The position numbers and the translations under genes were made by a program. Below are positions 24,152 through 58,540 of a DNA stretch of 64,000 bases, one piece after another. The stretch comes from Tubulanus polymorphus (Eukaryota > Animalia > Nemertea). How positions within the stretch are numbered: the stretch's first letter is position 1; every line of letters starts with the position of its first letter. The stretch spans positions 14,232,150-14,296,149 of the forward strand of contig NC_134026.1 of the NCBI RefSeq assembly GCF_964204645.1. The letters run 5' to 3'. The notes under the pieces are model-generated. The model made no database searches, had not been told where the DNA came from, and was given only the letters and a program-made list of their open reading frames with translations.

Positions 24152-24154
<3 letters not shown>

Positions 24155-24417: not shown

Positions 24418-24996
24418 TTATAAATTTATATTCATATGGAAATTGAAGTCTCAGTAATAATTTTGAACCTTTATTTAGTCTTTAGTTTATTCATATATTC
24501 ATCATGTAATTCAGTAGGTATTATTTGATTTTCTTCGAATGATTGTTGCATAGATTTTCTATCTTTATTGTAGAATAAAACTAAAAATCTTATATTCTCC
24601 CTAAAATCTTTCACAATTGAATTATATTTTTGATTTAAAACCCACGTTGTTATCCCAAAATGTATCCCCGAGAAAGCTAAAAACATAACTCACTTTCTCT
24701 AACTTTTGAATCATGTAAATTAGCACAATCATCTATGATAAATAATGTATTTGAACCTTTATAAATATCAATTGCTATTTTAATACAATTATCTAAATTT
24801 TCTTTTACTGTTTTAGGATCTAATATAATATACTATTTTATCTTAACTATATCCCTATTATATGTTTTATTCGTTTCATTCAATGATATTATATTATCAA
24901 AATGATTTTTATAAATAGTTTCTAACAAATCTAATTTGAAATGCGTTTTACCACATTTGGTTACTCCAGTTCAAATATAAATAAATCTTTATTCAT
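24418..24996 (-). pseudogene. A32-like packaging ATPase, copy B
   Basis: TGVTKCGKT, FIIDDCANLHD, HFGITTWVLNQKY; homologous to 51806-52411. Confidence 0.85.
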
Positions 24997-25017
24997 TTAT
25001 CTTTTAATTTTACTAGA

Positions 25018-26881: not shown

Positions 26882-27598
26882 TTACTGATCTAAATATAAC
26901 TGAAAATCTAGTTTGTCATGTTTAATCATATTTTCTATCTTTTCGAGTGGTCTTAGATTCTTCCAATTCCAAATTAACTTTTCATTACAATCATCATCCA
27001 AATTAAATTTAGATATTGGTAACACGTGATCAATATGAAAGTATTCACCATAATTATCTATTTTTATTTTATCATCAAATTGATAAACAATCCAGGATTT
27101 TAGAAATTCATCTGAACAGTCTAGCAAATTATATAGTGTTTCTGAGAGTTTCTCTTTGCTGAATAATTTTGATACTTTAGATCTTAAACAATTTTTCAAT
27201 TTGTAATTAAAATATGTTTTATATCTTTCATTTTGATAATTATTTTGATACGCTTTATAATATTCTCTATTATCATCCCTCCATTCTCTCATATATTCTG
27301 TCATATAGTCTGGATGATTTTCTCTCCATTGTTTATTATTAGCTTTGCATTTTTCTAGATTATTTGTTCGATATTGTTTACCCAATTCTTTACATTTTGC
27401 AGTGTTATTTGTTTGATATTGTTTATTATATAGTTTACGACAATTTTTGCAATAATAACTTTTACCATCTTTCTTATTTTTATCTTTATTAAATTCTGCT
27501 ACTGATTTATTTATTTTACACTTGGAACATTTCTTATAGTATATTTTTATAACCCCAGTATTATTGTTTATATTAATAGTTTGTGATTGTTCCTCCAT
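26882..27598 (-). CDS. Zinc-ribbon plus HNH endonuclease of the type common in large DNA viruses (stop at 26882 may be premature)
   Basis: KKCSKC...F.KD....DG...YCKNC, helical repeats, LDCS.EFLKSWI.YQF, DNYGEYFHIDHVLPIS.F, W.NLRPL...EN..K. Confidence 0.75.
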   Translation of the reverse strand: MEEQSQTININNNTGVIKIYYKKCSKCKINKSVAEFNKDKNKKDGKSYYCKNCRKLYNKQYQTNNTAKCKELGKQYRTNNLEKCKANNKQWRENHPDYMTEYMREWRDDNREYYKAYQNNYQNERYKTYFNYKLKNCLRSKVSKLFSKEKLSETLYNLLDCSDEFLKSWIVYQFDDKIKIDNYGEYFHIDHVLPISKFNLDDDCNEKLIWNWKNLRPLEKIENMIKHDKLDFQLYLDQ

Positions 27599-27681
27599 TG
27601 ATAATACATATTTTTATCAAAATTGATTAATATAATCTCATTCTCCTTTGTTTCTTCTCTTTTGAACTTTAAGTATTCATT

Positions 27682-34670: not shown

Positions 34671-35109
34671 ACGTACGTACAGACAATACTAAGAATAAGA
34701 GACCTCGAAGTCTCATCATGACCTTTTAGGAAATCGATATTTTAGGTATCCGCGAACAAATCTATCGCGCGCGATCGTGACCTTCAACCAAACGTGGGCT
34801 GTAACAGCCTAAAATGTCGGAATTTTATCGTGATTTGTTTGCATTTCAAGCCGTTTCAATCAGTTTAAACAGTGTCTATTGTTCACGTGAGTACAGAAAT
34901 AATCTCGGAGGCCTAAATGATGTATGTGTGTGGTGCATGTCGACCAAAAAAATTGAAAAAAACGACTGAACTTGTTTCTATTTAGATTCCTAACTCGGTC
35001 TATTGCAATAATACCACGAATATGTCATGCCTTTTCATTCATGATAACCCATGAACCAAAATATTTGTATTACACATATACATTTCGGCCCAACTCCATC
35101 AATAGGCCC

Positions 35110-38100: not shown

Positions 38101-38160
38101 AGAACTAAAGATCATGAAGCTAAATAGTTAAAAGGAATCACAACGCACGTGGTTGACAAG
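35110..38160 (+). pseudogene. pPolB, copy C, with endonuclease VII-like insert and intein remnant
   Basis: YGDFES, ATHCCYC...DH...RGAA...CNL (~36138-36230), YIDANNLFGWAM, NSFYGK, ILYFD, then C-terminal KIPG...DELGG...RSKMY...KGI. Confidence 0.88.
37836..38010 (+). mobile_element. Internally deleted remnant of the same intein
   Basis: ILYFD|SVTA joined to GIFMDDGSAGV...YCWYLCNQDLKLLE.IEKYCEEV.SH..FKIID. Confidence 0.85.
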
Positions 38161-41100
38161 CATAACTTTATGGCTATTAATTATTTATAATTTTATGACA
38201 TTGTTTCATCAGGTTTAAATCATCATCAGCTGAATCACCATCTTCTAATTCTTCATCATCTAAAAGTTCTTTATTTTGTTGATTAGTAAATTCAATTATA
38301 TATTTATAAATTTCATTCATTCTTTATTTTCATCGGATTGTTTTTCTATAATTGTTTTAGGTCGTTCTATTCCATTATTTTTATTTAAATGCTCTATATT
38401 GCTCCACATTTCATCTCGCTCTTTTTGTCTCTTTTTATTTGTTATTTCATCAATTATTCATGGAATTATAATATCGATGTTTAAAAAATATAAAATTTTA
38501 TTTAAAAAGAATCCATAATAGATTGAATCTTTTATCTTCTTATCAATACAATAATTTAATATTTTAATAAATGTTTCTTTTATATTACCCATATCTTCTT
38601 TTGTTAATTAAGGGTTTTTATAATGATCGTTTAGTAATAAATATAAATACATTTTCTTTTCTTTTGTGTTACATGTTGATGGAATAATTGTTTTTATTTC
38701 ATATTTCTTTCTTAGTTAGTTCATCATTTTTATTTTCTATTATTTTCATTGTTTCAAGCCATTGCATATATTCTTGTCTTATTGTCTTCTATAGAAAAAT
38801 ATTTTAAAAATTTCATCTAGATATTTTAACTTTGGCTGAATAAGAAAATCACTTGTTTTTTCATCACCCCATAAATTTTTTTGATAGCCACATTCATTAC
38901 GAAATATCATAGAATCGTTTTGTCTTAAGTACTCGTAGATACATTGTGGGCATCTTTTTCATATCTTGGCAATAGATGTACATTAAGCTCTTGGCATTTA
39001 CTTACGTCATCTTTATGTTTTATTATGTGAGTTTGGATTACTTGTTGTATCAATCAATGTACAATATTTACAATAATATGTTTTTCTTACTAATTCATTA
39101 TATTGTTTTTCTAATTTTTGAAGTGTAACTTTATTGTTCGATAACGTTTTCTCATACTTTATTTTTTCTAATAAATTATTTTTTCTTTCATTAATTTCTT
39201 TTTCAAATTTATTGAAAATTTTATTTACATGTACTTCATTAAATTGACGATTCTCCCAATCATCTATACTTTTAGAACTAAATTTTATTCGAAAATGCTC
39301 GCAGAAATAATTTCTTATTTCATTCTTATCATAAAATAAAAAGGTCTTTTCCAAATAATTTCAAGTTCAACTTCAACAGAATTATTATCACGTTACTATC
39401 ACCATTAACCATTAGGTCATTAATTTTAGACTTCTCTTAATGTTTTATTACAATTTGGACAGTTTGTTAGGGTATTTATAATTTTGATCATGTTTTTTTC
39501 ATATGCCAAGGCATATTACTTGTTCTTTGTAGTTCACTACAAATTTCACATTGTATCTTCTCGTCCATTTATTTAGGAAAAATTTATCAAAATCATTTTC
39601 GAGGGGTTCGATGTATTTTTTTTAAAATAATAAATGGTAGATTTAAAAGAATATAGGATATATGTTGATTCTAGAAGACTTACAAATTATAAATCACATA
39701 ATTTATTAATGCAACTGGATTTAAAATTTAAAAATTAGTTATGTAACTCTTTCTGTGTCGGATAAAACTGCTGAACACAGAGCCTTTTTTAATCTTAAAC
39801 CTGGGTTATATAATCTAGATACATTATCACAAGAAATTAATAGCAAAGCCTTGCACAAATTAAGTAGTGATTCGGGTTTGGCAATTGATTTTTAAGCTCT
39901 TAAGTGATAGTTCCAATAGAATTAAGATAAGGTTAGCTCATGATGAAAGACATCAATTTTTAGTAAAAAACCTATAGCTAAACTATTAGTAATTACACCT
40001 GAAAAACTTTACTTAAATGTTGATGCTATGCCTAATTTAACACCTAACACACACTTTTATATATTTATTGTAATTTAATCGAATCTACAAAAACATTTGA
40101 AGCAACTAAATATATATTTTGTGATTCTAGTATATTAAATATATGACAATTAAAAACTATTAAACAATTCAGTACACAAATAAATTATAATTTAGCTAAG
40201 TGTGATTTTAAACCATGTATTCCATTTCCATCTATTTCATTTATAGGAGCAAATGTTATTTCAAATATAATATCTTCTTGAATTGCGTATTTATATAAAG
40301 GTGCATTATTATTTATAAATTCAAAGTCTAATGGAATTTTATATCTGCTTCCATAAATCTTTTTTATTGAATTATCTGTAGCATTAGTTATTATTGCATT
40401 ATTAGCTTCTGATCTTAATTTATCATGGTTTTCTGATTGGATGCCTTGAAATATCATATAATTTCTATTGTTTCTTTTGTTAACCATAAGTCTTTGTAAT
40501 GCATAAATAAATTATAATCATCTAATGAAAAAACTGTTTCTGGTCCAATCTTTAAAGTTAATTTTTTAATCAAATATCTCCCAACATTATCAACAACATA
40601 ATTATTATCATAGCCAGTTACTTTTATATCAGCTGATAAATAAATACTATTTGGAACATAAAAAGTATTTTGATTTAATCTCGGGATTCTTACATATAAA
40701 GTTTCATCAGGATTAATATTTGAGGGATTATGAGTAATTATATGATGATATCTTTCTTCTTTAATAGCATTAGATATTCTAGAATTCTTAGAAGGATTTA
40801 TATAACTCCCTCTCATTTATTTAACAAAAAAATTAATTATTTATTTTTGATCATATTCACTAACCCAAAAATAATAGCACTTACAACCGTTATTAAGAAT
40901 AGAATAATATGTTCCGCAGCAAAACTAATAATATTTCCAGCAGATTTTAATACAAAACCAACAATTGAAGCAATAATTCCAGGTAAAGCTGCATCAGATT
41001 GTTTAAATAGTTCCCATAGATATGTGCCTAATTTCTTTAAACCATCTTTAACTTTATCTTGTATAGAATTATTATTTGGTGGTTTATCCGGTTTGTAAGG

Positions 41101-42342
41101 TGTAGGTGTAGATTTTAATGAATTTGATATTGCTAAACCTATTGTTGTGAATACCATAGTTACAGCTGTTAGAATTGGAAGAATTGTTATACCTTCTACC
41201 TTAAATAATAATTTCAATCTATTTTTTAATGATATTTCAGAATTTGGTTTTATCAACAAATCTTTAAAAACAACTTTCTAATCTATTAATAGTATAATCA
41301 TATGATTTTAATAATAATTTGGTTTCTTCTTTCTGAAATTCTATGTTATATTCTAAATCATCTTTTTCTTTTTCTAAATATGCATTTCTTTTTTTAAATT
41401 CGATTTCTTCAATAACTTTATTATCTCTATCTAATTTTAATTGTTCTATTTCTTTAATTTTATCAGTTCTATCTTTTTCTAAAGTTCTAATTTTAAAATC
41501 TCATACTTTTATCATGCGCAAATTTATCAGCTTTATTTCTTATACTAATAATTTCTCAAATTGCTTTATCAGAAAATATATTTAAATCTTCTAATTGTTG
41601 ATCTGTTGCGACAAGTAACCCATTTGGTAAAAGTTTTTCAGATTGAACTCTTCTTGAATTAGGTTTACTAGTTTTTGAAGTTATATTCTGTTCAGAAGTT
41701 GTTTCTATTAACATTTTCTATTTCATTACTATTTCTTATTCTTTCAATTCTAGATAGGTTTAACTTAAGCAAAGTTGATTCTGCTAATATTTTGTTTTGT
41801 TTTTTATAACTTTGCGCGTAGTAGCACATGCCCGTAGTAGCACATGTGGGTCAACATATCCATGCTGTGAGTTGACCCCTAGGTGGCTCTCTTTCAAAAA
41901 ACGGAATGTAATGAACTGATTTCGGGTGAAATCTTTGCTCGCATCTCTGAACGACATTCTATCCAGAAAGGCAGAAACCCGTTATCGCTGCTTGCAGCTA
42001 TATTATTCTTATAAGATTTCTTAGAATTTATTTTAGGAAAAAAGTGAAAAAAAATATTATAATTATTTTTCAAATGATACTAGTAACTCTTTGGGTTAAT
42101 ACTAGCTAGTTAAAGAATTCTATTATTAACTAAGAAATATTAGATTTGAATATCTATTGGAAGTTATGTAATTTCTATTCAAATCTTATCAAAATCTATT
42201 AAATCTAGTGTTAATTAGAATTGAATAAGAATATATTAAAAATATAATAGAATTCAATAGTTAGTTAAGGATATGTAATTTTTAATACTTTCTATTAGAT
42301 TAGGAATGATTTCATAATCATATATTTATTATGCAAATTGTA

Positions 42343-42408: not shown

Positions 42409-42705
42409 CATAGTATAATAAAACAGCTGTTAGTAATTAGAAGATGGCGTTTTCATACCAGAGTACTCGAGTACTAGACACCACTCATCACCACAAGTAT
42501 TTTTTTTTCCTTACAAATTGGGGAGAATGAACACCAGCCAGAAAACAATAATGTTAATAAAAATCAATATTATTGCCAATATTGTAAAAAATACATCGAT
42601 AAATCTAATAAATCTCATCATGAAAAATCTGCAAATCATATAAAAAATGTAATAGATTTTGAAACTCCAGAAAATTCCAATGAAAGAAAAGAACGATTAG
42701 AAAAT

Positions 42706-43090
42706 ATGAATGTGGATGAAATAAAATGTGAAGTTTGTAATGAATTTATAACAAAAAGGAATTATAAAAGACATCTCGAATCACAAAAACACCATCAAAC
42801 TTTGAGTAATAATGTTTCAGGAAAAGATTTTTTTGATGATAAACCTCAAAAAGTAAAAAAACCAACTTCAAAAACTAAATCCATTTCAAATAAACCTTAC
42901 ATGGAAAATGTTAGAAATTATATTGATTCACTAGAAATAAAAGATACAATTGAAATTTTAGAAACATTACATAGTAAAATTGGTCCTGCGGCTATTATAT
43001 TTAGATTCTTTAAAGGAACAACAATAGAAGATTATAGTAAATTTAATGAAATAATAGAAAAAATACTAGATTTGATAACAGATGTTATCA
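42706..43090 (+). pseudogene. pPolB N-terminal zinc-finger remnant, cut by deletion
   Basis: Matches 357-735 up to ITDV, then jumps into the 3' end of the opposite-strand gene. Confidence 0.75.
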
Positions 43091-44405
43091 AATCAATATC
43101 ATCATACTCGAAATCACTATTGGCTTCTTCATTTTCATTTAATTGTTCTTGTATAATTTGTTTAGGTTCTTCCATTTCATTTTTCTCATTTAAATATATT
43201 TCTATCTTGTACCACATTTCATCTCGCTCTCTTTGTTTCTTTTTGTTCGTTAATTCATCAAATGGAATTATAATATCGATGTTTAAAAAATTTACAATCA
43301 TATTTAAAAAGAATTCATAATTTATTGAATCTGTTATTCTATTTTCCAAATGAAACATTAATATTTGTTTAAATATTTTTTTTTATATTTTCCATATCTT
43401 CTTCTGTTAATTTAGGTTTTTCATAATAATCGTTAAATAATAAATATAAATACATTTTCTTTTGTTTTGTGTTAAATGTTGACGGAATAATTGTTTTTAT
43501 AATATCTTTTTTAGTTATTTCACCATTTTTATTTTCTATTATTTTCATTTTTTCAAGCCATTGCATATATTCTGGTGTATGATCTTCTATAGAAAATATT
43601 TTAAGAATTTCATCTAGATAATCTAATTTTGGATCTATGAGAAAATTTCTAGTTTTTTCTTCACTCCATAAATTCTTTTGCCATCCACAATCAACACAAA
43701 ATAACACAGTACCTTCTTGTCTTAAGGATAACTACATTGTGGACATTTTCGTTTATAATTTATTGGTAATAGATCTTCATTAAGCTCTTAGTATTTTCTT
43801 ACGTTTTCTTTATGTTTTATTGTTCTATTATGTAGATTTGAATTACTTGTTGTAATAATCAATTTACAATATTTACAATAATATGTTTTTCTTGTCAATT
43901 CATTATATTGTTTTTCTAACTTTTCAACTGTTTCTTTATTATCTGGTAACGTTTTCTCATATTTTATTTTTTCTGATATATCATTTTTTCTTTCATTGAA
44001 TTCAGTTTCAAATTTATTAGAAATTTTATCTATATGTGCTTTACGAAATTGATGATTCTCCCAATCTTCTATATTTTCAGGGCTATATTTTATTCGACAA
44101 GGCTCGCAGAAATGATCTTTTATATTATCCTTATCATAGAATAAGAAAGGTCTTTTCCAAATAATTTCAGGTTCAACATCAACAGAATTACTATTACTTT
44201 CGTTACTATCAACATTAACCGTTGTGTTAGTAATTTTGCACTTCTCTGAATGTTTTTTAACATAATTTCTTGAGAATAATTTATTACATTTTGGACAGTT
44301 TAGTTTAGGGGGTTTATAATTTTCTTCATGTTTTTTCATATGTCGAGCCATATTACTTTTTCTTAGAAGTTCACCACAAATTTCTCATGGTATCTTCTCA
44401 TCCAT
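43090..44405 (-). pseudogene. Multi-zinc-finger protein gene(s), broken by stops
   Basis: Several CxxC...H...H/C motifs in ORFs 43788-44351 and 43369-43707; likely start TAAATG at 44405; homolog at ~38200-39568. Confidence 0.6.
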
Positions 44406-44473
44406 TTATTAAGGAAAAATTTTATTAAAATTAATTTTTAGTGATGAGCGGTAATTTTTTTATGTTATAGATA

Positions 44474-45145
44474 ATGGTAGAATTAAAAGAATACAGAATA
44501 TTTGTTGATTCTAGAAAACTTACAAATTATAAATCACATAATTTACTAGTTCAATTAGATAGAGAATTTAAGAATTGTGTTGATTTAAAATTAGTAAATA
44601 TAAGTTTATGTAACTCATTTTACAATATATCAGATAAAACTGATGAACATAGAACCCTTTTTATTTTTGATAATCTTGATAAAAAATGGTATCAACTTAT
44701 GCTTATACCAGGATTATATAATTTAGAAACATTAGTGCAAGAAATTAATAGAAAAGCTCGGAATGGATTAGGTAATGGTAATTCTAAATTTAATATTAAA
44801 TTAATAAAAAGTGAGATCTCTAATAAAATTAAAATAAAGTTTGATGATGAAATGATTAAATCTAATGTATTTATGATAAAAAGACATACTTTCATGGTAA
44901 AAAAACCTTTTGCTAAACTGTTAGGAATTACTCCAAATAATTTTATTGATGGAAACATACACGTTAACTCAAATATAATACCTTTTACACACTTTTATAT
45001 TTATAATTTAGCTGAATGTGATTTTAAACCTTGTATTCCACATTTCAATAATTTTAAATTAGAAATAAGAAATCATAATGGTTATTTAATTGATTTGAAT
45101 AATTTTCCTGTGATATATGCATTAGTTATAAGATGTAGAGAGTAA
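44474..45145 (+). CDS. Putative minor capsid (penton-like) protein, with in-frame internal deletion near 45003
   Basis: Motif pattern VDSR / NSFYNI / PGLYN / AKLLGI / IRNHNGYLIDLNNFPV..L; lacks the YCNL...LP segment present in copies A-C. Confidence 0.6.
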   Translation: MVELKEYRIFVDSRKLTNYKSHNLLVQLDREFKNCVDLKLVNISLCNSFYNISDKTDEHRTLFIFDNLDKKWYQLMLIPGLYNLETLVQEINRKARNGLGNGNSKFNIKLIKSEISNKIKIKFDDEMIKSNVFMIKRHTFMVKKPFAKLLGITPNNFIDGNIHVNSNIIPFTHFYIYNLAECDFKPCIPHFNNFKLEIRNHNGYLIDLNNFPVIYALVIRCRE

Positions 45146-45161
45146 TTTTTTCATTATATAA

Positions 45162-45485
45162 ATGAATATAACTGTTGGACCGAGTATATGTTTTGGATTT
45201 GATTTTAAACGTGAGAAAGAAATGAAATTTAACATTAATGATGTAATTATACATATCAAAAATATTGCATTTTCTAATGAAACAACATTTGAGTATGAAA
45301 CAACAAAAGATAAAGAAACTTTAAATGTAGAAAAGATTACTAATTTAATTAGAGAATCTTTAAGATTTTATGAATTAGATGAAGATTTTATCATCGATGA
45401 TATTAAAAAAATAATAATTGAAATATATACAAATGAAAATAGTAATGAAATAAATGTTGATTTGATCATAAATAAGTTAACTTAA
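45162..45485 (+). CDS. Polinton hypothetical protein
   Basis: Homologs at ~5905-6245 and 18317-18665; TAAATG start. Confidence 0.6.
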   Translation: MNITVGPSICFGFDFKREKEMKFNINDVIIHIKNIAFSNETTFEYETTKDKETLNVEKITNLIRESLRFYELDEDFIIDDIKKIIIEIYTNENSNEINVDLIINKLT

Positions 45486-45519
45486 TATTTTGAAGATAGT
45501 ATTTTTTTTTGATTAATAA

Positions 45520-45741
45520 ATGAGTGATAATAAGTGGATAATAACTGGATTATATAATGGAGCATTACTATCAGTTGGAACTGTTGGTTATTCAATGGTA
45601 TTAAAAAAGGTATTCAAAATGGGAAGTGTTAATGTTGATAGATTTGATATCAATGATATTTTAAAATTAACATTAGCAGTTACTTTATCTAATTTAACTA
45701 TTGATTATTTAGAAAAACAAAAATATATTCCTCCCATATAA
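45520..45741 (+). CDS. Small hydrophobic (two-helix) protein
   Basis: Near-identical open copies at 6242 and 18666. Confidence 0.75.
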   Translation: MSDNKWIITGLYNGALLSVGTVGYSMVLKKVFKMGSVNVDRFDINDILKLTLAVTLSNLTIDYLEKQKYIPPI

Positions 45742-45765
45742 ATACATAATTTTTTTGTTAAATAA

Positions 45766-46188
45766 ATGGCTTCTGCAATTATAACTATTATAGGATCGGC
45801 AATTGTTAACGCTTTAGCATTTACTGGTGGTGGATATTTATTTAAGCATATTGATAAAAATGGATCATTAACAGAACAAAAAAGACATAACTTAGCATTA
45901 GAGAAATATAATAAAGCAGCAGAAGAATATAGAGAAAAAAGACAAAACTATATGGATTATATTAACAAGGAATTATATGATCAGAAGATTTCACATAGAG
46001 ATTTTCAATCAGTTGATGATGCAATGAGTTTATATAACGCGGTAACCAATAAAGAAAAATTACATCTATACAAACCTAATTTATCAGATTATTATACCCC
46101 AAGTAAAGAACAACAGAAATATGAAATAATTTGGATTTTAGGCGGAACAGTTATTGTTATATTTGTAGCATATAAATTTACTAATTAG
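45766..46188 (+). CDS. Protein with N-terminal hydrophobic segment, coiled coil and C-terminal TM
   Basis: Intact 140 aa; homologs at 6484 and 18900. Confidence 0.75.
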   Translation: MASAIITIIGSAIVNALAFTGGGYLFKHIDKNGSLTEQKRHNLALEKYNKAAEEYREKRQNYMDYINKELYDQKISHRDFQSVDDAMSLYNAVTNKEKLHLYKPNLSDYYTPSKEQQKYEIIWILGGTVIVIFVAYKFTN

Positions 46189-46208
46189 TAATTTATTTTT
46201 CTAAATAA

Positions 46209-46634
46209 ATGGAAGATAATATTGATATTATTCCTCATGATATAAATAAAACTAAATTAAAAATATATTTAGAAAAACAAATATCAGAATTTGAAAGTGA
46301 TTTAAAAGTTAAAAAGAAAAAATATTTAAAAAGTAAAATTATATATTATTTGATTATAAGTGGTTCGGTTACAATTAGTTCTGTAATAACATTTCTAGCA
46401 ATATTCAGTCCATTAACACCTTTAGCTATATCAATTGGTGTGTTAGGATTATGTTCAAGTGTTTTAACTGGTATAAGTTCAAAATTAAATATAAAAAGTA
46501 ATAAAGAAAAAATTAAAACTAATATAAAAGAAATTAATAGATTAAAGAATACACTAGATTATGTAATGAGTTTAAATGGTCATATAACAGTTGAAGAACA
46601 AGATAAATTATTAAAAGAATTAGTTAATTATTAA
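46209..46634 (+). CDS. Two-TM protein flanked by coiled coils
   Basis: Intact 141 aa; homologs at 6925 and ~19307. Confidence 0.75.
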   Translation: MEDNIDIIPHDINKTKLKIYLEKQISEFESDLKVKKKKYLKSKIIYYLIISGSVTISSVITFLAIFSPLTPLAISIGVLGLCSSVLTGISSKLNIKSNKEKIKTNIKEINRLKNTLDYVMSLNGHITVEEQDKLLKELVNY

Positions 46635-46650
46635 TTTTTTTATTATATAA

Positions 46651-47907
46651 ATGGGGTTTCCAAAAGCTTTCCAATATAATAAATCACATGAATATTATAA
46701 ATATAATACTCCAGCAATAGATTTTAGTAACATGATAATATATAAAAATTTAGTTTTACCTTCATTGATTAATTTAGAAATTTATGTTACTGAAACAAAC
46801 TATTTTATTTCTAAAATGGAAAATATATTTAATACATATGAAGTTACTTTTACTCGAGATGAATATAATATATATAAAGTAAAATCTAATATGAAATATT
46901 GGCAGAATCAATTAAATTTTGCTGTTCATTGTGCAACAGCTGGTTGTGGTGTAAGTTGGCATGATCACTTGAATAACTTAGATAAAAATTTGAAATATTC
47001 TGATTTAAAATTCATTCATACAATATTTAGATTTCATGTATACTTTCAAATTAGAATTATATTAAATGAATTAGAATGCCCTATACCTGGATCAAAATAT
47101 TTTAAAGAATTGGATAATAATATTAATCTATCTAAGTTTTATAAAATATGTAATGAATTTAATATAAATATTAATTTCGATTTTAGAGCGCATGGTAAAT
47201 TGCAAGGTGTTGGTGAAGAGTATGAAATAAAAAGAATTGATTATATGCATAGAATTTCAGCTTATCATAATTATAAAATTGATAATAATAATGGTTGGGT
47301 TTATTTTATTGAATCTTATAGTGAAGGATTTACAAAACCTGGAATACAAAGAATAAATCAATCAATTAGAACTTATTTGATATGTATTTTAGGTGCGCAA
47401 GTTGAAACAAGATCACCAATAGTTGGAAATAATAGTACTTCATTTGATGCGCAGAAACAATTTAAAGTATTATTTGAAGATTCCATTCATAATGATAAAA
47501 AGAGATCGATTCCAGAAAACATTGTAAGATATCAAAATTATTTAGATAAATCTCATGTAAGACTAAATTATTGTATAGGCCCTAATCTATTAATTATTTC
47601 TAATGATTTAGTATTAAAGATGGGAAATATAATTGGTTATAATAATCTAATTAAAACTGCAACAATAAATAATTCAATTGGATTAAATGATATAAATAAA
47701 AAGATTATTACTGCTCCAAAATTAATGGAAGGTGAAAAAAATAAAAAACACATTCAATCAACAGAAACTAAAACTAAGAATATTAAATTGGATAATGATT
47801 CCAAAATAAAAGATTACAATACTACAGAAATACTACATGAAAATACTAAATTAGCTTTAACTTGTATAGGAATTGTTATAGGAGCAATATTATATTTTAA
47901 ATTTTGA
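46651..47907 (+). CDS. 418-aa conserved unknown protein with C-terminal TM anchor
   Basis: Intact ORF; homologs at ~7370-8600 and 19755-21075. Confidence 0.8.
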   Translation: MGFPKAFQYNKSHEYYKYNTPAIDFSNMIIYKNLVLPSLINLEIYVTETNYFISKMENIFNTYEVTFTRDEYNIYKVKSNMKYWQNQLNFAVHCATAGCGVSWHDHLNNLDKNLKYSDLKFIHTIFRFHVYFQIRIILNELECPIPGSKYFKELDNNINLSKFYKICNEFNININFDFRAHGKLQGVGEEYEIKRIDYMHRISAYHNYKIDNNNGWVYFIESYSEGFTKPGIQRINQSIRTYLICILGAQVETRSPIVGNNSTSFDAQKQFKVLFEDSIHNDKKRSIPENIVRYQNYLDKSHVRLNYCIGPNLLIISNDLVLKMGNIIGYNNLIKTATINNSIGLNDINKKIITAPKLMEGEKNKKHIQSTETKTKNIKLDNDSKIKDYNTTEILHENTKLALTCIGIVIGAILYFKF

Positions 47908-47922
47908 TTTTTTATTATATAA

Positions 47923-49383
47923 ATGGGTGTAGAATGTGGAGAAGATATTGGAATAGATAATTTTGATGAACCTGGCATAACTGATGAACAACAACCTGAT
48001 TTTAGTGAAAAAAGTTTTAATGACGGTAATAAGCCAGGATATAATAATAATTTAAATATGCCTGATTATATTAAAAATGCAGAATCACAATTAAATCCTG
48101 AAAATTTAGACCCAGATTTAGTAAAACAAGATTTAGATAATTTAAACAAAATACCTAAATTAGAAGATTTAATTGAAAAATCTAAACTTAACATAAATGA
48201 TGAAGACGTTGGACTTTTAGCAGATCAATTAAAATTTTTATATAATGGTAAATGTTATTATCGTTTGAAAGGTGATTATTATATTGATATCACTTATAAA
48301 AATAATAAAAATAAAATATTATCAGAATCAACTTAAGAAAAATTAAAACCAGATAGAATTAAAATAATAAGTAATAGTAATGAAATAACTGATGTTACAC
48401 AAAAAGAAAAAGATGATAATATAGACGTATTTAAACAAAGAATTAATGAGTTATTTGACAAAATCAAAAAGAAATCAGAAACAGAAACAACTTCTGAACA
48501 GAATAAAACTTCCAAAACTAGTAAACTTAAATCAAATAAAGTTCCAATTGAAAAACTTTTACCGAATGGATTAATTGATGCAACAGATCAACAATTCGAA
48601 GATTTAAATAATATATTTTCTGTTGAAGCAAATAGAGAAATTAAAAGTATAAGACTTGCATCTGATAAAATTGAGCATGATAAAAGTATAAGAGATTTAA
48701 AAATTAGAACTTTAGAAGATGAATTTTTTAAATCAAGAAAATGATCGGAACAACTAAAATTAGATAGAGATAATAAAGTTATTGAAGAAATCGAATTTAA
48801 AAAAAGAAATGCGTATTTAGAAAAAGAAAAAGATGATTTAGAATATAACATAGAATTACAAAAAGAAGAAATTAAATTATTGTTAAAATCATATGATTAT
48901 AATATAAATAGATTAAAAGTTATTTTTAAAGATTTGTTGATAAAACCAAATTCTGAAATATCATTGAAAGATAGAATAAAATTATTATTTAAATTAGAAG
49001 GAATAACAATTCTTTCAATTCTAACAGCTGTAACTATGTTATTTACAACAATTTGTTTAGCTATATCAAATGCTTTGAAATCTACTCCTACTCCCAATAA
49101 ACCAGATAAACCCCCAGATAATAATTCTATACAAGATAAAGTTAAAGATGGTTTAAAGAAATTAGCAAAATATTTATGGGAACTATCAAAGAAATCTGCT
49201 GCAGCATTACCAGGAATTATTGCATCAATTGTTGGTTTTATATTGAAATCTGCAGGAAACATTATTAACTTTGCTGCTGAGCATATTATTTTATTTTTAA
49301 TTACAGTTGTAAGTGCTATTATTTTTGGGTTAGTGAATATGATATCAAAAAGATATCAAGAACAAAATAATAAAAATAAATAA
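47923..49383 (+). pseudogene. Acidic/coiled-coil protein with C-terminal hydrophobic helices; two in-frame stops
   Basis: ORFs 47923-48336 and 48880-49383 are in the same frame; homologs at 21076-22775 and 40837-41810 (-). Confidence 0.7.
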
Positions 49384-49403
49384 TTAATTTTTTTATTAAA
49401 TAA

Positions 49404-50651
49404 ATGAGTGGGAGTTATATAAGTCCTTCTAAGATTTCTAGAATATCTAATGCTATTAAAGCAGAAAGATCACATCATATAATTACACATAATCCTTCAA
49501 ATATTAATCCCGATGAAACTTTATATGTTAGAATTCCTAGATTAACACAAAATACTTTTTATGTTCCAAATAGTATTTATTTATCAGCTGATATAAAAGT
49601 AACTGGTCATGATAATAATTATGTTGTTGATAATGTTGGGAGATATTTGATTAAAAAATTAACAATAAAGATTGGGTCTAGAAACAGTTTTCTCATTAGA
49701 TGATTATAATTTATTTATGCATTATAAAGATTTATGGTTAACTAAAGAAAATAGAAATAATATGATATTTCAGGGTATTCAATCGGAAAACCATAATAAA
49801 TTAAGATCAGGAGCTAATGACGCAATAGTAACTCGTGCCACAGATAATTTGATTAAAAAGTTTTGTGGAAGCAAATATAAAATTCCATTAGACTTTGAAT
49901 TGATAAATAATAATGCACCTTTATATAAATACGCAATTCAAGAAGATATTATATTTGAGATAACATTGATCCTGTAAATGAAATTGTATTATCTAGCGTT
50001 GTTAAAGATATGGGTTATAAATTATCAAATATATGTTTAGAATATAACACAGTAACTAATGAAAATATTGCTAGCACAATTCAAACTCAATACAATCAAG
50101 GATTTTCATTATTATATGATTATATTGATAAATTTAAAACTGTAACTATTAATGCAAATGTTGAAATAATTAATGAGAATATTAACTTCCCAAGAAGATC
50201 TATTAAAGGTATATTAATATTTTTTACCATTGCAACATATTCTAATGGTGCAATAAAGGTAGATATTTATTATAATCCTGAAATAACAAAAGTAGAAATA
50301 ACTATCGAAGGAATAGCAAATAAAATATTTTGTCAAGGAATGAGAATGATAGATCAGTGGCCAGAAATTAGAAAACATTTTTTGAATGAAAAAGTAAAAT
50401 CATTTGAAAATTGTAATATTAATCAAATTGATTATTATACCGGCAATAAATACGCATTATGGTTAGATTTTAGAACAACAGAGGATAATTCATTACATGG
50501 TTCTGGGAAAAAACTACAAAATACAAAAGATGAAATACAATTATTCATGAAAAAGAAAAAAGGAAGCTTAAATTTTAAAATGCCCATTTATATTATATCT
50601 GACGCGCAATTAAATATTGTAAATTCACAATTAGATAGTATTCAATATTAG
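49404..50651 (+). pseudogene. Putative major capsid protein (double jelly-roll), two frameshifts
   Basis: Three ORFs join to ~415 aa, beta-rich, conserved in three copies, next to integrase and ATPase; the fold is inferred. Confidence 0.6.
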
Positions 50652-50681
50652 AAATATAAAGTTAAAATTAAGGATATATAA

Positions 50682-51805
50682 ATGGGTGGTAAAAAAACTC
50701 CTAATACTAAAGAACAATATTTAAGAAATTTATATTACAACCCTGAGAGTTCGGTTGCTTATTCTTCTACCAAAAATATATGGCGTCAAGTAAAACAAGA
50801 TAAATTAGATAAGACAATCCCACAAAATTTAGTTAAATATAAAGATATAAATGAATTTATGTTAGAACAACCAACATACACAACACATAAAAAAATTGTT
50901 AGAAAATATAAAACTCGTAAAACTATGGTAAGTTATGTAGATCAACAGTGGCAAGGAGATTTAATTGATATGAAAAATGTTAAGAAAGATAATGATGATT
51001 ATTGGTGGTTATTGAATATAATTGATATTTTTAGTTGTTATGTATGGAGTTTCCCACTTTATAGAAAAGATGCTGTACAAACATCAAATGTTTTAAGAAA
51101 ATTTCTTTCGGATGATAAACTAAAACCAGAAAAAATACAATTTGATGATGGAAAAGAGTTTGATAATTCACTTGTTCATGAACTCTTAGACAATCATAAT
51201 ATTAAATATTTTTCAACAAAATCGGATAAAAAAGCGGAAGTTGTTGAACGATTTAATAGAACATTAAGAACAAGAATGTGGAAATATTTTACAGCAAATA
51301 ATACTTTTAAATGGATTGATGTTTTACCAAAATTGATAGAAGGATATAATAATTCTTATCATTCTTCTATTGGAATGAAACCTATTGATGCTAGAAAACC
51401 TGAAAATGCTGAAATTGGAATAATTTATATGGAGCATTTGTTATAGATGATTTTGGTGAACCTAAATTTAAAGTTGGTCAAAATGTTAGAATTTCTAAGT
51501 ATAAAAAGATATTTGACAAAGGATACGATCGAAATTTTACTAGGGAAATATATAAAATAAAAAAGGTAATAACAACAAAACCATATGTCTATAAATTAGA
51601 AGATTTAGATGGTGAAGAAGTTGATGGCTACTTTTACGAAGAAGAATTAAGTTTAACTACTGAAAATCTAGAACAAGAATATAAAATTGAAAAAGTATTA
51701 AAAACAAAAACTATTAAAAGAAAAAAATATTCTTTAGTAAAATGGGTTGGATGGCCAGATAAATTCAATGAATGGATATTGTCAAGTAAAATTAAAAATA
51801 TATAA
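50682..51805 (+). pseudogene. rve integrase with chromodomain; frameshift near 51415
   Basis: QWQGDLIDM, IIDIFS, IQFDDGKEF, VVERFNRTLR, YNNSYHSSIGMKP, then YKIEKVL...LVKWVGWPDKFNEWI. Confidence 0.92.
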
Positions 51806-52411
51806 ATGAATAAGGAATTATTTATATTTGAGCCTCATAATATGTTAATTTCTGGTGTAACAAATTGTGGAAAAACTTATTTTATATTAAATTTATTAGA
51901 AACTGTTTATGAAAACTATTTTGATAATATAGTATTTTTTTGTCCAACATATGAATTTAATCAAACTTATGATAGAAATATTACTAGAAATAATAAATTT
52001 ATTATATTTGATCCTAAAACAGTAAAAGAAAATTTAGATAATTGTATTAAAATAGCAATAGATATTTATAAAGGATCAAATACATTATTCATTATAGATG
52101 ATTGTGCTAATCTACATGATTCAAAAATTACAGAAAGTGAGTTATGCTATTTAGCTTTTTCTGGCAGACATTTTGGGATAACAACTTGGGTTTTAAATCA
52201 AAAATATAATTCAATTGTTAAAGACTTTAGAGAAAACATTAGATTTCTAGTTTTATTCTACAATAAAGATAGAAAATGGATAAAAAATGCACTTGAGGAA
52301 AATGATATTATTCCACATGATTTACATAATGAATATATGGATAAATTGAAAAATATTAAAAGATGAAAATTACTATTTAGATTACAACACCCATTTAAAT
52401 ATGAATTTATT
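51806..52411 (+). CDS. A32-like (FtsK/HerA) packaging ATPase; stop at 52366 probably premature
   Basis: Walker A GVTNCGKT, Walker B FIIDD, GRH...Q...R.N motifs. Confidence 0.9.
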
Positions 52412-52416
52412 TAAAT

Positions 52417-52690
52417 TCAACTAGCTTGTTGATCTAGTTGAATTCTAGTAACATTCTAGTTGAATTCTAGTTATTAGTAGTTGAAACAAAAATAAAATAA
52501 AATTCAACAATATTTTAACTAGCTTGTTAATCTAGTATATTTTTAGTTACATTCTAGTTGAATTCTAGTTATTAGTAGTTGAAACAAAAATCAACTAAAT
52601 TTAACAAGAAATAAATAAAAACAACAATATTTCAACTAGCTCGTTAATCTAGTTGAATTCTAGTTACATTCTAGTTGAATTCTAGTTGCA
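52417..52690. repeat. Internal tandem array, three ~100-115-bp units with five CTAGTTGAATTCTAG cores
   Basis: Direct read. Confidence 0.85.
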
Positions 52691-52719
52691 ACAACACAAC
52701 GATTTTTTTTGTTATATAA

Positions 52720-53325
52720 ATGGTAGGTGAAAAGAAAGTAAAATCTAAAAATGGTGATGTTCCAATTGAAAAAACTTAAGATGATTTAGGAATGACAGAA
52801 AACAAATTAATTCCAGATGATGGTGCTTTAAATAATGTTACAACAAATAATAATTATGAATATTATCTTTATTGTAAACATCAATTAGAAATATTAATAG
52901 CATCTGGAAAATGTAAAAATTTTGTCGGTAAAAATTTAACTTATAATGAATTAGATACAATGAAATCAGATGAAATTATTAGATTATTTAGGATTTATGA
53001 AGCCGCGAGAACAGCTAGAATTAATGACGCGATATCAGAAAATGTAGTAAAAGGTTATAGTAAATTATGTAATTATATACTACCAATTGAAGATGAAAAT
53101 AGATTATATTCCGATTTAAAAAATGATTATTTAGTTATGACTGAATTAAATAAATGGATTGGATATTTATCATTTCAATTAGGTGGATTTATGACATTAT
53201 TATCAACTGGGGTTATAACATTTTCAAATATTGAAAGTAAAAATATTTCTATAATAAATGAGCGAGGTGGAAGAAGTGAAGGAATTAACTGTGAAGAAAA
53301 AACCGAGTTCACAGAAACAAATTGA
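52720..53325 (+). CDS. Polinton hypothetical protein (TAAATG start at 52720, early stop; open from 52792)
   Basis: 177-aa ORF; homologous fragment at 30950-31100 (-). Confidence 0.6.
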
Positions 53326-53545
53326 ATGGTCTCGGCAATTAGGAATTAAATCACAAGAATATAAAAAAGCTGTAAAAGAAAAAATAAGTAATAAAAACGT
53401 TAATGAAAATAGTGAAAATATTGTTATTTCTACTCCTTCTAATAATAGAATATTTGATAAATGTCTATATTTTACAGTTGGATTTGTAATTGTATTCATT
53501 TTGATTGGGTGTAATTGGTATAAGAAATTAAAAAAAAATTCATGA
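53258..53545 (+). CDS. Small basic protein with C-terminal TM
   Basis: Homologs at ~30650-30915 (-) and 63667-63950. Confidence 0.65.
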   Translation: MSEVEEVKELTVKKKPSSQKQIEWSRQLGIKSQEYKKAVKEKISNKNVNENSENIVISTPSNNRIFDKCLYFTVGFVIVFILIGCNWYKKLKKNS

Positions 53546-53777
53546 TATTAATAATTCTGAAACAACTGCTATCAAAAATGAAAATACTTCTGAAATTCCA
53601 AAATTTATAATAAAAAAATGGATTAATATTTTAGAAAAAAAAGCAAAAAAAATAATTTTTTTAATTAATTGAATATCTCACTACTTTTGTCTATCTATGC
53701 GGAGCAATTAAATTGCCCAGATAAGTCATTTCGGATTCTTAATATTCATTATTTTTATTAATTTATTTTTTTTAATT

Positions 53778-54104
53778 TAATCAACAATTTCTAAATTATG
53801 ATGGCCATCTTCATTTTTTCCATGATAGATTATTTTAAATCCTTCTAAATCTTTTAATTCCTCTGTACTCAATGAAGTCCATTTATCAGGTAAAATACTT
53901 AAAATTCTCGCGATGTACTAACATTACAGTAGCTTAAATTCGCTGATACTTTCTCTCCATATTTAGTTTTTATCTTTTCTAATTTCAATATTTTATGTTC
54001 AATTTCTTTTGTAACATCAACTAACTTTTTTATTTCAAATATGTTTTTTTTGCTGGTTTAATTCTGTTATTTATTGTTGCTAAGAATGCTTTTCTATCTC
54101 CCAT
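53778..54104 (-). pseudogene. Small TIR-adjacent gene, diverged relative of the 17190-17550 / 58768-59067 ORF
   Basis: Minus strand KIKTKYGEKV...LPDKWTSLSTEELKDLEGFKIIYHGKNEDGHHNLEI versus LPDRFHRLS..DIEELCSGDF...YKGKNE.GHH.IDFE. Confidence 0.6.
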
Positions 54105-54974
54105 TTATTAGGAAAAGAAATTACTTGTGGTGATGAGTGGTGTCTAGTACTCAAGTACTCTGGTATGAAAACGCCATCTTCTAATTACTGCTGTTGTTGT
54201 TACCATTAACAACGACCGAACATCGAAAGTAATAGACACTGCAATTCGGGCAAAATATCATACATTGAAAATTTATTCAGCATGACAAAACAGCTACAGT
54301 CAAATTAGATGTAACACTCATAATTTCTGATTCTGCATCGTCACTTTCTTGTGATAAACTTCTTGTTACCTAAAAGAGAAATATATCTAGAGCGTAGAAT
54401 AGAATTAACTTGGAGTTGTAGTTGGCAAATATAAATTGCTGCACATATTTAAAGGTTTCTAATTAAGTAACCCCTTTCCCGATTTCTTAATAACTACAAA
54501 AACGGTACTTACATTTAGAACTGTAAACTCCGAATTGTATTACAAGAGAGAAATATATGTGTCCTGTTTATATACGTGCTTATATCTAACTGCTTCAATG
54601 AAACATTGAACGGCTACATCTGTTTGATCAATCAATATTCAAATTAATTACTTCAATACAACTAAATGGAGTGAGCGCGCAACATAGGTTTTGAGACAAG
54701 CAATTTTCATATAGATCGGGCGTCGCAGTTTTTGTACGACATGCTTATTGTAAAGAATGGAACTTACTAATAAATTGCAAAAAAACTAAAGTAATTCTCG
54801 AAGGGAAGACTACGAAACCCCCCGGAGTTTAATATAAACGGTCGAGTGTTGGAGTTAGTATATAACTATAAGTATTTGGGTATACTATTCCCCATACCGG
54901 GTCTTTTGTTCAGTGCCGAAAAGCGTTAGCAAACCAAGCGCGGCGGGCTATGTTCTCTGTTTTAAAAAAGGTTA

Positions 54975-55930: not shown

Positions 55931-58255
55931 TAAATTCATATTTGTTTATTTGCATGTCCGCATACGTTCGGTTTCAAAGCTGAATCACATTTGAAGTTTA
56001 CACAGTGGTTGCATATTAGGTTCGAATATACCAATGCATTTTATTCTATGTATCGGTATTTCAATTTACTACAATTCCCATCCTCCTGAATGTCTTTGCA
56101 GAAAACCCGTCATCGCTGCTTTGCAGCTATATTTCATCATAAAATTGTTCCTTTGTAAGCTCAGTTATCTTAAAATCATTACATGATTTATAAAAAGAAT
56201 ATGGCGTGGCACCTGTATATCTCATTCATTGAAAATCATCATTATTTGGAAAGTGTTGTTTCAATACTTTTAATTCACCATCGATCAAACTTTTTGATAA
56301 ATTATCTAATGAACTATTTAAAAACCTATATGAGTCTATAAATCTTAAGCGACCGAATTGGAAAGATATATAATTTTCAGATGTTTTAGCTAGCATTCTA
56401 AATCTATAAGTTGGTATTTTGGGTGGTGGTGATGATGATTGGTATTGATTTGGTATTGTTATTTTTCACAAACATTTTACGATCCTTAAGGTAGATGCTA
56501 AACCAATTATATGCATGTCCACGAACCCCATAATGTGCTTATTTGAATAAAAGGTTGTCTATATTGAGTGAGTCGAATGTTTTCGATAAATCTAAAAATA
56601 AACCTAATGGGTAGTTATTGTTTTCTAAATTATAGATAATATTCCCAATGAAATCAGTCATGGCATGGATAGTGGAATGATTAGGTCGAAATCCGTATTG
56701 ACTGGGGTTTATAATTTTGTGTTTAGTGAAAAATTTGTATAATCGCGTATGACCTAGTTTCTCTTGGACTTTTGATAGGGTTGGTAGAAGATATATATGG
56801 CGGTAGTTATTGAACAGTTGCTTGTTACCATTTTTAGGGTTTTCTGTTTCTTCACAAAAAACCCTATTGAGATTCGCGTGATTGGGTTTTCTGTTAATTC
56901 ACAGAAAACCCTATTGATTGAGATTCGCGTGTTTCTTATTATCATTTTATGTCACACTATTTTCACTAAAAGAACATAGGCTTTGTTACCTTGCCACTGT
57001 TGTCGATACAATCCGTATGATATCCTTCAGCTCACTTTGATCTACAAATACTCTGTGCGTATTCTGATAAATGAACGTAACAAAAGCGCTGTAAACATCG
57101 AAAATTGGGTCCCATTCAATGAGGCGACATGTTTTTCTGAGTCGTCATCCCGAAATCCACAGGAGGTTGCTCGTCACTTCGTTTATCAATTCAAGTGTAA
57201 ATAAACAAATTTATTGCCGCAAGACGTCACATTCAGCCGCGGTTTTTAAACAGTAATTTATAACCATTACCCATTTTCCTCATCAAATCATATTATCGAT
57301 ATACAGGAAATTTAATGCTCTTGATTTTAAAAGCACTGTCGAGCCAGTAACATCGACGAATCGACGTGTGTCTCTTCGTCGTCGTTCCGGGGATCAGCTG
57401 TGAGTTTCTCCTCATCATGACAATCAAATGAAGTACAAATAAATTTATTACTACCAGTGATTTGGCCGCGGGCTTCAAACAGTTAGTTTAACAATACCTA
57501 ATTTTCTGTACCAAATTTACTGTATATTTACTAGGATAAATCATTAGAGTACCGGTGAGTCGTAGGCATACGTGGCAAAAAATTTATATTTACATTTTTC
57601 TTTTGTTCAAAGATTCATCTTAACCGCTGGAGGTCCCCCGTTATGCCGATAAACACACTAAAACACTTGAATAAAATTGCGAAAACTGTGTCAGAAATTG
57701 ATTTTATTATGTAAAATCGTAGAAAAGGTGCCCAGGTTGGTAGGTTCCGGTAGGCTATTTGACGCTGTTTGTAGGTTGAAAGCTGTGAACGCTGATACAG
57801 TGAGTGTAGTGCACACGTTTGGATTGTCTTTACAAACAGAAAGGGGAGCGTGCGCACTGCAAACAAGATGGCAGAAACTCTCTTGTGAAAAAATTGGGTC
57901 CCAGGCAACAACTTTATAGCGGATAATTAATGAATATGTACCGAATAAATAATTTTGTACTATGATATTTGGCATTTATTGCCAGCCTCAACCACGGCAC
58001 AAGCCCCTATGAACTAAACTATGAGTCCATTCTTATATGAATATGAATAGTGCTTTTCGGCGTTCTAATGCATTTTCTAACCCGATAGTAATTCCTCATC
58101 AGCATCTATTATAAACACAACATTTTGGCCCAAGATAGAGTTTAATACACAATCAATATACAGAGAAAATTACAATTTTCAGTGAAGGGCTACTCGAACT
58201 GTTGAATAAATAAACCACCAAACGGTGTAAACGACAAAATCCATTTTGATTTCAG

Positions 58256-58474
58256 GTCATAAGTGTGAAAGACAACGATAGTCTAGCAGCAAGACTTGCG
58301 GTGGAAATTAAAGCGGAACTCTTGATCATCATGTCTGATGTAGATGGATTGTACACGACCCCACCGGGAGAAAGCGGTTCGCGTCTGCTTCATTCTTTTT
58401 CGCCATTAGCAGAAAATATTAACATTGTGTTTGGAACAAAATCAAGAGTTGGAATGGGTGGCATGGAGTCCAAG
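58256..58474 (+). CDS. ALDH18A1: P5CS coding exon
   Basis: TTTCAG|[33 protein letters not shown]...[15 protein letters not shown]|GT; 219 bp, phase 0, continues ...DLQG from 32725. Confidence 0.96.
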
Positions 58475-58540
58475 GTATAGTAGTATAGTAGAGTTTATTT
58501 TGCATAATAGATTGGTACAAAGATGTGTAATTACAATATG

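Follow-up and report, generated by a model that had tools for sequence, protein, structure and literature searches.

Gene starts of a decayed Polinton from the nemertean Tubulanus polymorphus exhibit a layout resembling the poxvirus late promoter

The element and its genes

The stretch of DNA considered here, hereafter 'the window', comprises 64,000 nucleotides of the nemertean Tubulanus polymorphus (NCBI RefSeq assembly GCF_964204645.1, contig NC_134026.1, positions 14,232,150 to 14,296,149 of the forward strand), and its element at positions 42432-54189 is a Maverick/Polinton. The hallmarks of this class are found, that is, (i) a protein-primed DNA polymerase of family B (pPolB), (ii) an rve integrase, (iii) an A32 ATPase, (iv) a double-jelly-roll capsid protein, (v) terminal inverted repeats and (vi) a 6-bp target-site duplication. 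TAAATG is found at 13/14 gene starts of this copy. Judged from letters and spacing, the gene-start pattern is real, lineage-specific and composed of two parts, a T core and TAAATG, and it matches the late promoter of poxviruses. Several genes of the copy are interrupted by stop codons or frameshifts. The features are listed below, with candidate promoters given as T run, spacer and TAAATG.

42426-42431, + strand: left target-site duplication, 6 bp; 6-mer identical to the right flank
42432-54189: integrated Polinton/Maverick copy, 11.76 kb, decayed and internally deleted, with most of the DNA polymerase gene missing
42432-42524, + strand: left terminal inverted repeat, its inner end being the decayed start of the polymerase gene
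42478-43086, + strand: 5' remnant of the protein-primed DNA polymerase gene (zinc-finger N-terminus), matched by blastn to the copy at 82-733
43120-44405, - strand: fusion of C2H2 zinc fingers with a VLTF3-like late transcription factor, broken by a stop and frameshifts; paralogue at 38320-39568 (-)
44403-44419, - strand: late-type candidate promoter of this fusion, T5 + 6 nt + TAAATG, at a divergent start with no upstream gene
44474-45145, + strand: putative minor capsid (penton) gene, the function being a guess; sole start in the copy without TAAATG
45162-45485, + strand: gene, 107 aa, unknown; candidate promoter 45146-45164, T6 + 7 nt + TAAATG
45520-45741, + strand: conserved gene, 73 aa; candidate promoter 45502-45522, T9 + 6 nt + TAAATG
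45766-46188, + strand: conserved gene, 140 aa; candidate promoter 45750-45768, T7 + 6 nt + TAAATG
46209-46634, + strand: gene, 141 aa, with a weak match to SLATT-like two-helix membrane proteins; candidate promoter 46196-46211, T5 + 5 nt + TAAATG
46651-47907, + strand: gene, 418 aa, marker of the family; candidate promoter 46635-46653, T7 + 6 nt + TAAATG
47923-49383, + strand: coiled-coil/membrane protein gene with two internal stops; candidate promoter 47908-47925, T6 + 6 nt + TAAATG
49404-50651, + strand: double-jelly-roll major capsid gene in three frameshifted pieces; candidate promoter 49388-49406, T7 + 6 nt + TAAATG
50664-50684, + strand: candidate promoter of the integrase gene with short T core, AAAATTAA + 7 nt + TAAATG
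50682-51805, + strand: rve integrase with C-terminal chromodomain, frameshifted (Pfam rve, E 1.4e-9; Chromo, E 6e-5)
51788-51808, + strand: candidate promoter of the ATPase gene, AAAATTAA + 7 nt + TAAATG, its TAA doubling as the integrase stop codon
51806-52414, + strand: A32-like packaging ATPase with a premature stop near its end (Pfam Pox_A32, E 3.8e-12)
52720-53325, + strand: conserved gene with an early stop; candidate promoter 52703-52722, T8 + 6 nt + TAAATG
From 53258, + strand: gene with candidate promoter 53244-53260, TTT core and TAAATG, within the coding region of the upstream gene
54104 to ~53780, - strand: broken gene; candidate promoter 54102-54116, T4 + 5 nt + TAAATG, inside the terminal repeat
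54097-54189, - strand: right terminal inverted repeat, including the candidate promoter and start of the 54104 (-) gene
54190-54195, + strand: right target-site duplication, 6 bp

The terminal inverted repeats are 93 bp long, identical at 86/93 positions, and have AGT ends. The capsid gene is 63-80% identical to its intact orthologue in the metagenome locus L002, the model of which (predicted local distance difference test, pLDDT, 84.5) matches capsids of the type found in nucleocytoplasmic large DNA viruses (NCLDV; E 8e-20), and Atlas clusters it with Capsid_N/DJR. Longer copies of the polymerase gene lie at ~170-3800 and 35100-38000 of the window, and a Pfam-confirmed pPolB (DNA_pol_B_2) used as tblastn query matches at 2101-3135 (E 3e-41) and 36806-37399 (E 8e-20). 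For the 418-aa protein, a confident model was obtained (pLDDT 84) which exhibits a hydrophobic C-terminal helix and has no fold match in a viral structure library. No RNA polymerase of the element's own was recognised in the window or in the near-complete relatives L002 and L015, among which there is no complete intact element. Likewise, none of the open reading frames (ORFs) scanned, near-complete relatives included, has a Pfam match to an adenovirus-type cysteine protease, for which no dedicated profile search was made.

TAAATG and a T core at gene starts

A preliminary description of this DNA had reported TAAATG at nearly every start, with the gene at 44474 as the one exception and TAAATG in three homologues of that gene; all these sites are present, and the homologues (5124, 17556 and 39634) do read TAAATG. 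The enrichment is strong at the starts, where 13/14 compares with about one expected. In a Markov model, 0.068 TAAATG are found per first ATG after a stop, and the binomial p for 13/14 is 2e-14 at a rate of 0.073 and 2e-10 at a rate as high as 0.15. In 100,000 shuffles of the 30-mers preceding the 14 starts, TAAATG stands at 1.2 starts on average and at 7 at most. Across the whole window, TAAATG is barely enriched (147 versus 124 +/- 12, a count reached by 3/100 shuffles), and in the host-like stretches 20/722 ATGs (2.8%), which are not gene starts, read TAAATG. The other decayed copies in the window have kept TAAATG at 17/23 orthologous or accessory starts, a hand-picked set which does not include the HNH gene described below. 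A comparison with internal in-frame ATGs was rejected because TAA, being an in-frame stop, cannot precede one.

The genes had also been described as intronless, mostly about 15-35 bp apart and often separated by a T run. They are indeed colinear with intact homologues, and intron-sized gaps are absent. The spacing holds for 8/11 co-directional junctions (16, 34, 24, 20, 16, 15, 20 and 30 bp) and fails for the rest (0, 305 and -68 bp), and TTTTTNT is present at 7/11 of these junctions. The suggestion that the T run represents the pox early terminator is, in turn, probably wrong or of secondary importance, since the spacing of the run is fixed relative to the next TAAATG; moreover, the run is also present at divergent and terminal starts lacking an upstream gene, which argues against a terminator. 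From its position, the T run is probably better read as a promoter core.

At 10/13 TAAATG starts, a run of four to nine T ends 5-7 nt before TAAATG. Counted back from TAAAT, positions 9-11 contain two or more T at 13/13 starts of the window versus 5/19 non-start TAAATG in the element (p 2.5e-5), and T occupies the 10th nucleotide upstream at 11/13 starts versus 5/19 controls. This is the published arrangement of the vaccinia late promoter, in which a core containing T is followed, after a spacer of 5-7 bp, by TAAAT(G/A) (PMC5294985), and for which a conserved T at the 10th nucleotide upstream of TAAAT is reported (PMC11980589). The integrase and ATPase genes have AAAATTAA + 7 nt + TAAATG in place of the long T run, and may thus represent a second timing class.

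Distribution among relatives

The 418-aa protein served as marker for relatives: 281 homologues and an alignment of 63 sequences led to 80 metagenome loci (the best of 231), 76 of which contain at least one full-length gene from 17 conserved families. Starts were called as the first ATG after an in-frame stop, by which an in-frame TAAATG cannot be missed. In clade 1 (4 loci, 20-23% GC, 59-65% identical to the 418-aa protein of the window), TAAATG is present at 17/18 starts, and in clade 2 (17 loci with three near-duplicates dropped, 30-39% GC) at 66/66. The loci L010 and L045 exhibit TAAATG at 3/4 starts, and all other loci at 3/180, including ten A+T-rich ones with 3/19. TAAATG use is thus all-or-none by lineage and is not set by GC content. 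The two near-complete relatives have TAAATG at 14/14 (L002) and 12/13 starts (L015), with the exception in L015 being the polymerase ORF at the contig end. L002 also carries a deoxynucleoside kinase cargo gene (10340-10981, -; Pfam dNK, E 2e-31) with full T core and TAAATG.

The T core follows the same division: it is present at 15/17 starts versus 19/52 non-starts in clade 1, and at 62/66 versus 12/69 in clade 2. When clade 2 is broken down by gene family, every member of 10/10 families has TAAATG, and most members of 9/10 families have the T core. TATAAA as TATA box of RNA polymerase II was rejected, as the start would fall inside the gene; it occurs at 4/66 starts of clade 2.

Clades 1 and 2 each have a support of 1.0 in the tree of the 418-aa protein. 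Three clade 2 loci are outside that tree, with L038 and L062 having been placed by other genes and L065 by the motif alone. In the trees of the 418-aa protein, the capsid and the ATPase (built with FastTree and rooted at the midpoint, without an outside root), the motif-negative loci L005, L006 and L009 are interspersed with the positive clades or lie between them. Hence, either TAAATG use arose or disappeared on more than one occasion, or mosaicism confounds the trees. The polymerase of clade 2 (L015, 8186-12253) has no tblastn match to the window and that of the motif-negative locus L020 does match, which indicates that polymerase and promoter type have been shuffled independently.

Motif-negative loci exhibit other layouts. 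In L006 and L009 (47-49% GC), TATA is present in the last 20 nt before the ATG at 13/18 starts (shuffles: mean 2.2, maximum 8), and ATT or TTT lies 8-16 nt above TATA at 13/13 such starts versus 29/91 other TATA; in the other GC-rich motif-negative loci, TATA is near the start in 13/112 cases versus 14 expected. The p72 late promoter of African swine fever virus (ASFV) has TATTT at -15 to -11 and TATATA at -1 to +5 (PMC5294985). The layout of L006 and L009, recognised post hoc in two loci, suggests a resemblance to an ASFV-type ATTT...TATA, and would fit a picture in which the lineages are matched to different helpers from a single viral class. GC-rich motif-negative loci (e.g., L018, L020, L036, L049 and L070) exhibit, in addition, a recurring TTGAAC / TGAAACAT, which precedes the 418-aa gene in 23/42 cases, the capsid gene in 5/15 and the ATPase gene in 7/12. 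This element, nearly absent in the motif-positive clades, is possibly a third promoter type.

A VLTF3-like gene

The gene starting at 44405 (-) encodes, in this order, zinc fingers, a zinc ribbon and a helical domain. Its C-terminal piece matches Pfam Pox_VLTF3 (PF04947) with an E value of 1.6e-4, below the curated cut-off, and the paralogue does so with 0.014. When a profile of three sequences (the fusion and its intact homologues P0146 and P0147) is aligned with 10 giant-virus VLTF3 proteins, that is, with non-pox homologues only, HHalign yields 96.7% (E 3.8e-10, 184 columns) compared with 0.2-0.6% for control pairs. Word-based searches for VLTF3-like relatives found none, and an 86-aa piece gave no lead in Atlas. 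Going by the profile alignment, we take it that the 44405 (-) gene carries a domain which is distantly homologous to NCLDV VLTF3. VLTF3 has previously been reported in a polintovirus subgroup (PMC11131425), and 'VLTF' appears in a figure legend of PMC8502044. L006 and L009 encode another, short protein, which resembles VLTF3 over 26 columns (HHalign 78.8%).

Other copies and neighbouring DNA

Host-like DNA (~35% GC) alternates in the window with A+T-rich blocks, which are decayed copies of one element, 70-90% alike. In a run of genomic reads, 45,230/12.9 million reads, mostly 90-99% alike, fall on 11.3 kb of the element, from which we conclude that the family is multi-copy; the contigs of three other runs, each with 2-3 short pieces matching the element, weigh neither way. 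In IMG/VR, no relatives turned up with the 418-aa, ATPase, HNH, capsid and VLTF3-like queries. Gene order differs in the copies at 19755-25950 and 35100-41730 (integrase and ATPase inverted; capsid block inverted), and hence the window holds either more than one subfamily or rearranged copies. Another copy carries an HNH/endonuclease VII gene (26882-27613, -; PHROG, E 3e-16). A probable intein with a LAGLIDADG-like piece directly follows the polymerase motif-C aspartate at 3130-3800 and ~37840-38010; it has no profile confirmation and rests on the sequence after that aspartate and on weak LAGLIDADG/endonuclease matches (E 0.007 and 0.0004). Among the Polinton fragments, there are also a decayed Helitron (11500-14300, -), a reverse-transcriptase fragment (56542-56898, -) and a host amino-acid-kinase exon (58250-58477, +), which we take to resemble animal P5CS. 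Imperfect tandem repeats of ~100 bp, rich in CTAG, lie between the ATPase and the next gene (52416-52690).

Interpretation

The preliminary description had read TAAATG as a pox-type late initiator and had proposed virophage-like dependence on a helper virus. The spacing of the T core, the all-or-none pattern among lineages and the VLTF3-like gene favor this proposal, and the fact that no helper virus was found does not. On balance, we consider it likely that a pox-type virus infecting the same cell served the decayed endogenous Polinton as helper and that its RNA polymerase transcribed the element, in the manner known from virophages. Dependence on such a polymerase would also offer a plausible account of the intein and HNH acquisitions, as the preliminary description had proposed, although the HNH gene starts without TAAATG. 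The integrated element would remain silent until a pox-type virus infects the cell. Helper polymerase and late factors would then start in the AAA of TAAAT, and a 5' poly(A) leader would arise by slippage; initiation in TAAAT with a slipped A leader is described for vaccinia (PMC4542343) and for yeast cytoplasmic elements (PMC6211774). We propose that the A leader would make translatable a message which otherwise has a leader of zero length and a T at -3. The genes, that of the integrase among them, would all be switched on together late in helper infection; as in mavirus, the element's own pPolB would replicate it, its own capsid would enclose it and its own integrase would insert it. The zinc-finger/VLTF3 fusion, standing itself behind a late-type promoter, might tune or jam the late transcription complex of the helper rather than start the cycle. 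For all this, integrated copies in the nucleus would have to meet a helper polymerase in the cytoplasm. We infer every step of this mechanism past the motif.

Several observations weigh against this reading. First, no helper virus was found: scanning IMG/VR for the motif yielded single, scattered hits, 120 in all, of which 25 open a frame of at least 60 aa, and no helper candidate. Inspection of 60 TAAATG-led ORFs by eye and of 16 with Pfam revealed no subunit of a poxvirus RNA polymerase. Second, TAAATG is not pox-specific: it occurs at 6/24 starts in A+T-rich giant-virus VLTF3 loci, 2/6 with T core (the records being motif-preselected and the counts thus inflated), and yeast cytoplasmic elements also use a TAAAN initiator (PMC6211774). 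Third, the motif is short, orthologous starts share ancestry and are hence not independent, the HNH/endonuclease VII gene starts without TAAATG, and the T peak was noticed in the data before the published vaccinia position was known to us, which makes it a match and not a blind prediction. Fourth, a longer read-through of the VLTF3-like gene with X and its two intact homologues have no Pfam match, and no VLTF3-like gene was found in the clade 2 loci, which are incomplete. Fifth, AATAAA is not depleted in the coding strands of any group, motif-negative ones included, so that nuclear and cytoplasmic transcription are not separated by this measure; nor does splice-donor depletion in coding strands separate the groups. 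Finally, polintovirus genes are expressed in coral samples, where the source mentions no helper in the text seen (PMC11131425), and hundreds of germline copies are easier to picture as the result of nuclear, helper-free transposition.

The alternatives differ in what reads the motif. It appears unlikely that the element dispenses with a helper and that its own zinc-finger/VLTF3 protein guides the nuclear RNA polymerase II of the host to promoters of NCLDV style. The many copies, as well as the VLTF3-like domain and the chromodomain integrase encoded by the element, would fit such a scheme. Small NCLDV relatives such as mriyaviruses are reported to carry VLTF3 (bioRxiv 2026.06.19.733378). The many copies aside, it would also fit that such viruses, to our knowledge, lack a polymerase of their own. 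However, the VLTF3-like gene stands itself behind TAAATG and hence cannot start the cycle, and clade 2, with no such gene found in its incomplete loci, nonetheless has TAAATG at 66/66 starts. Furthermore, a message made by RNA polymerase II and starting inside TAAAT would have almost no leader and T at -3.

A helper other than a poxvirus, be it a different NCLDV or a plasmid-like element of the cytoplasm whose initiator is TAAA, is quite unlikely to supply the polymerase. TAAATG is seen at some giant-virus starts and TAAAN in the yeast elements, no poxvirus was found with this host, and VLTF3 was compared with non-pox homologues only. Yet TAAATG on the start codon with T at the 10th nucleotide is the published pox late layout (PMC11980589), and the motifs described for other NCLDV differ (PMC5294985). 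It is similarly improbable that the motif is a relic, inherited from an ancestor which used a pox-type helper by an endogenous family which now spreads by nuclear transposition. That the copy at 42432-54189 is decayed and deleted yet cleanly integrated, and that the HNH gene is without the motif, would be consistent with a relic. Against it, the motif is invariant across clades whose proteins are ~33-36% identical to each other while the letters of the spacer vary, and it is found on lineage-specific accessory genes (the kinase, the gene at 23884 and the VLTF3 fusion) and inside overlapping coding regions.

It is highly improbable that TAAATG is no promoter at all and instead reflects A+T bias, a guard stop, or the end of the preceding gene, be it the stop codon or the poly(A) signal, the T run then being a terminator. 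In its favor, the clade 1 starts all read AATAAATG (9) or TATAAATG (8), AATAAA is enriched near stops (13/16 versus 5.8 and 21/52 versus 9.2 expected, inflated by the fixed TAA), and TTTTTNT is somewhat scarce in coding strands (observed/expected 0.49 in the window, 0.39 in clade 1 and 0.81 in clade 2). In clade 2, however, the codon before the ATG is TAA in 66/66 cases whereas the genes' own stops are TAA (28), TAG (15) and TGA (14), and the hexamers are AATAAA in 10/66, ATTAAA in 25/66 and neither in 31/66. In addition, there are A+T-rich relatives without the motif, divergent and terminal starts have it, just 3/27 tandem starts abut a stop, and overlapping head-to-head starts retain it in 22/22 cases, each inside the frame of the other gene (one orthologous junction in 11 loci).

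Extending the favored pox-type helper reading to the family as a whole, it is tempting to speculate, if only tentatively, that this one family of animal Polintons may be split into helper-keyed lineages, two of pox type and a sister of asfarvirus type, some with a VLTF3-like factor hijacking or jamming the helper, and that they may constitute heritable virophages, in animal germlines, of pox- and asfar-like viruses. According to bioRxiv 2026.06.19.733378, no virion of animal Mavericks/Polintons has been seen; silence of some lineages until infection by a pox-type virus would, if true, explain the unseen virions. The mavirus model of an integrated virophage would then extend from protists to animals, and a cheap sequence test would sort endogenous Polintons by probable helper. 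Their promoters would barcode large DNA viruses of invertebrates that still await discovery, and the elements themselves would possibly be an inherited antiviral defence.

Comparison with known systems

Mavericks/Polintons (Polintoviricetes, 'adintoviruses'; PMC8502044, PMC11131425) have the same pPolB, rve integrase, A32 ATPase, double-jelly-roll capsid, terminal repeats and 6-bp duplication. Here, in distinction, the gene starts follow a viral late-promoter layout, and a cysteine protease gene was not recognised (no dedicated search). Our literature search, covering main texts without supplements, found no report of pox-type promoters in animal Polintons, and an earlier mention is possible; in the text available to us of PMC8502044, PMC11131425, PMC5499653 and two 2026 preprints, the word 'promoter' is absent. 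The vaccinia late promoter (PMC11980589, PMC5294985) likewise has TAAATG on the start codon, a T core at the 10th nucleotide and a 5-7 bp spacer, with its function shown, whereas the likeness here is one of layout alone.

The pGKL yeast cytoplasmic elements (PMC6211774) resemble the element in being linear and encoding pPolB, and have a TAAAN initiator and A leaders; in contrast, they possess their own pox-related RNA polymerase, no such polymerase having been found in the Polinton here, and are non-integrating. Polinton-like viruses (PLVs), which occur in entomopoxvirus occlusion bodies (Barth et al. 2024, PMC11296320), are also linked to poxviruses in invertebrates, with gene flow including homing endonucleases. 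Compared by description only, they differ in having a cysteine protease and no rve integrase, and in being linked to the poxvirus by co-purification; the words 'promoter', 'motif' and 'TAAAT' are absent from the main text of that report as available to us.

The closest parallel in mode of life would be the Mavirus/Sputnik virophages, which are small integrating viruses with pPolB and rve integrase, without RNA polymerase, and with one late motif of the helper before all genes; in mavirus, all genes have the late promoter of Cafeteria roenbergensis virus (CroV; PMC6723459). Their hosts are protists, their helpers Mimiviridae, and their dependence is shown experimentally, whereas the element described here has an animal host and a pox-type motif and is known from sequence alone. 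Hence, helper-promoter mimicry in protist virophages and PLVs associated with poxviruses are known already, and what is apparently new is such mimicry in endogenous Polintons of animals.

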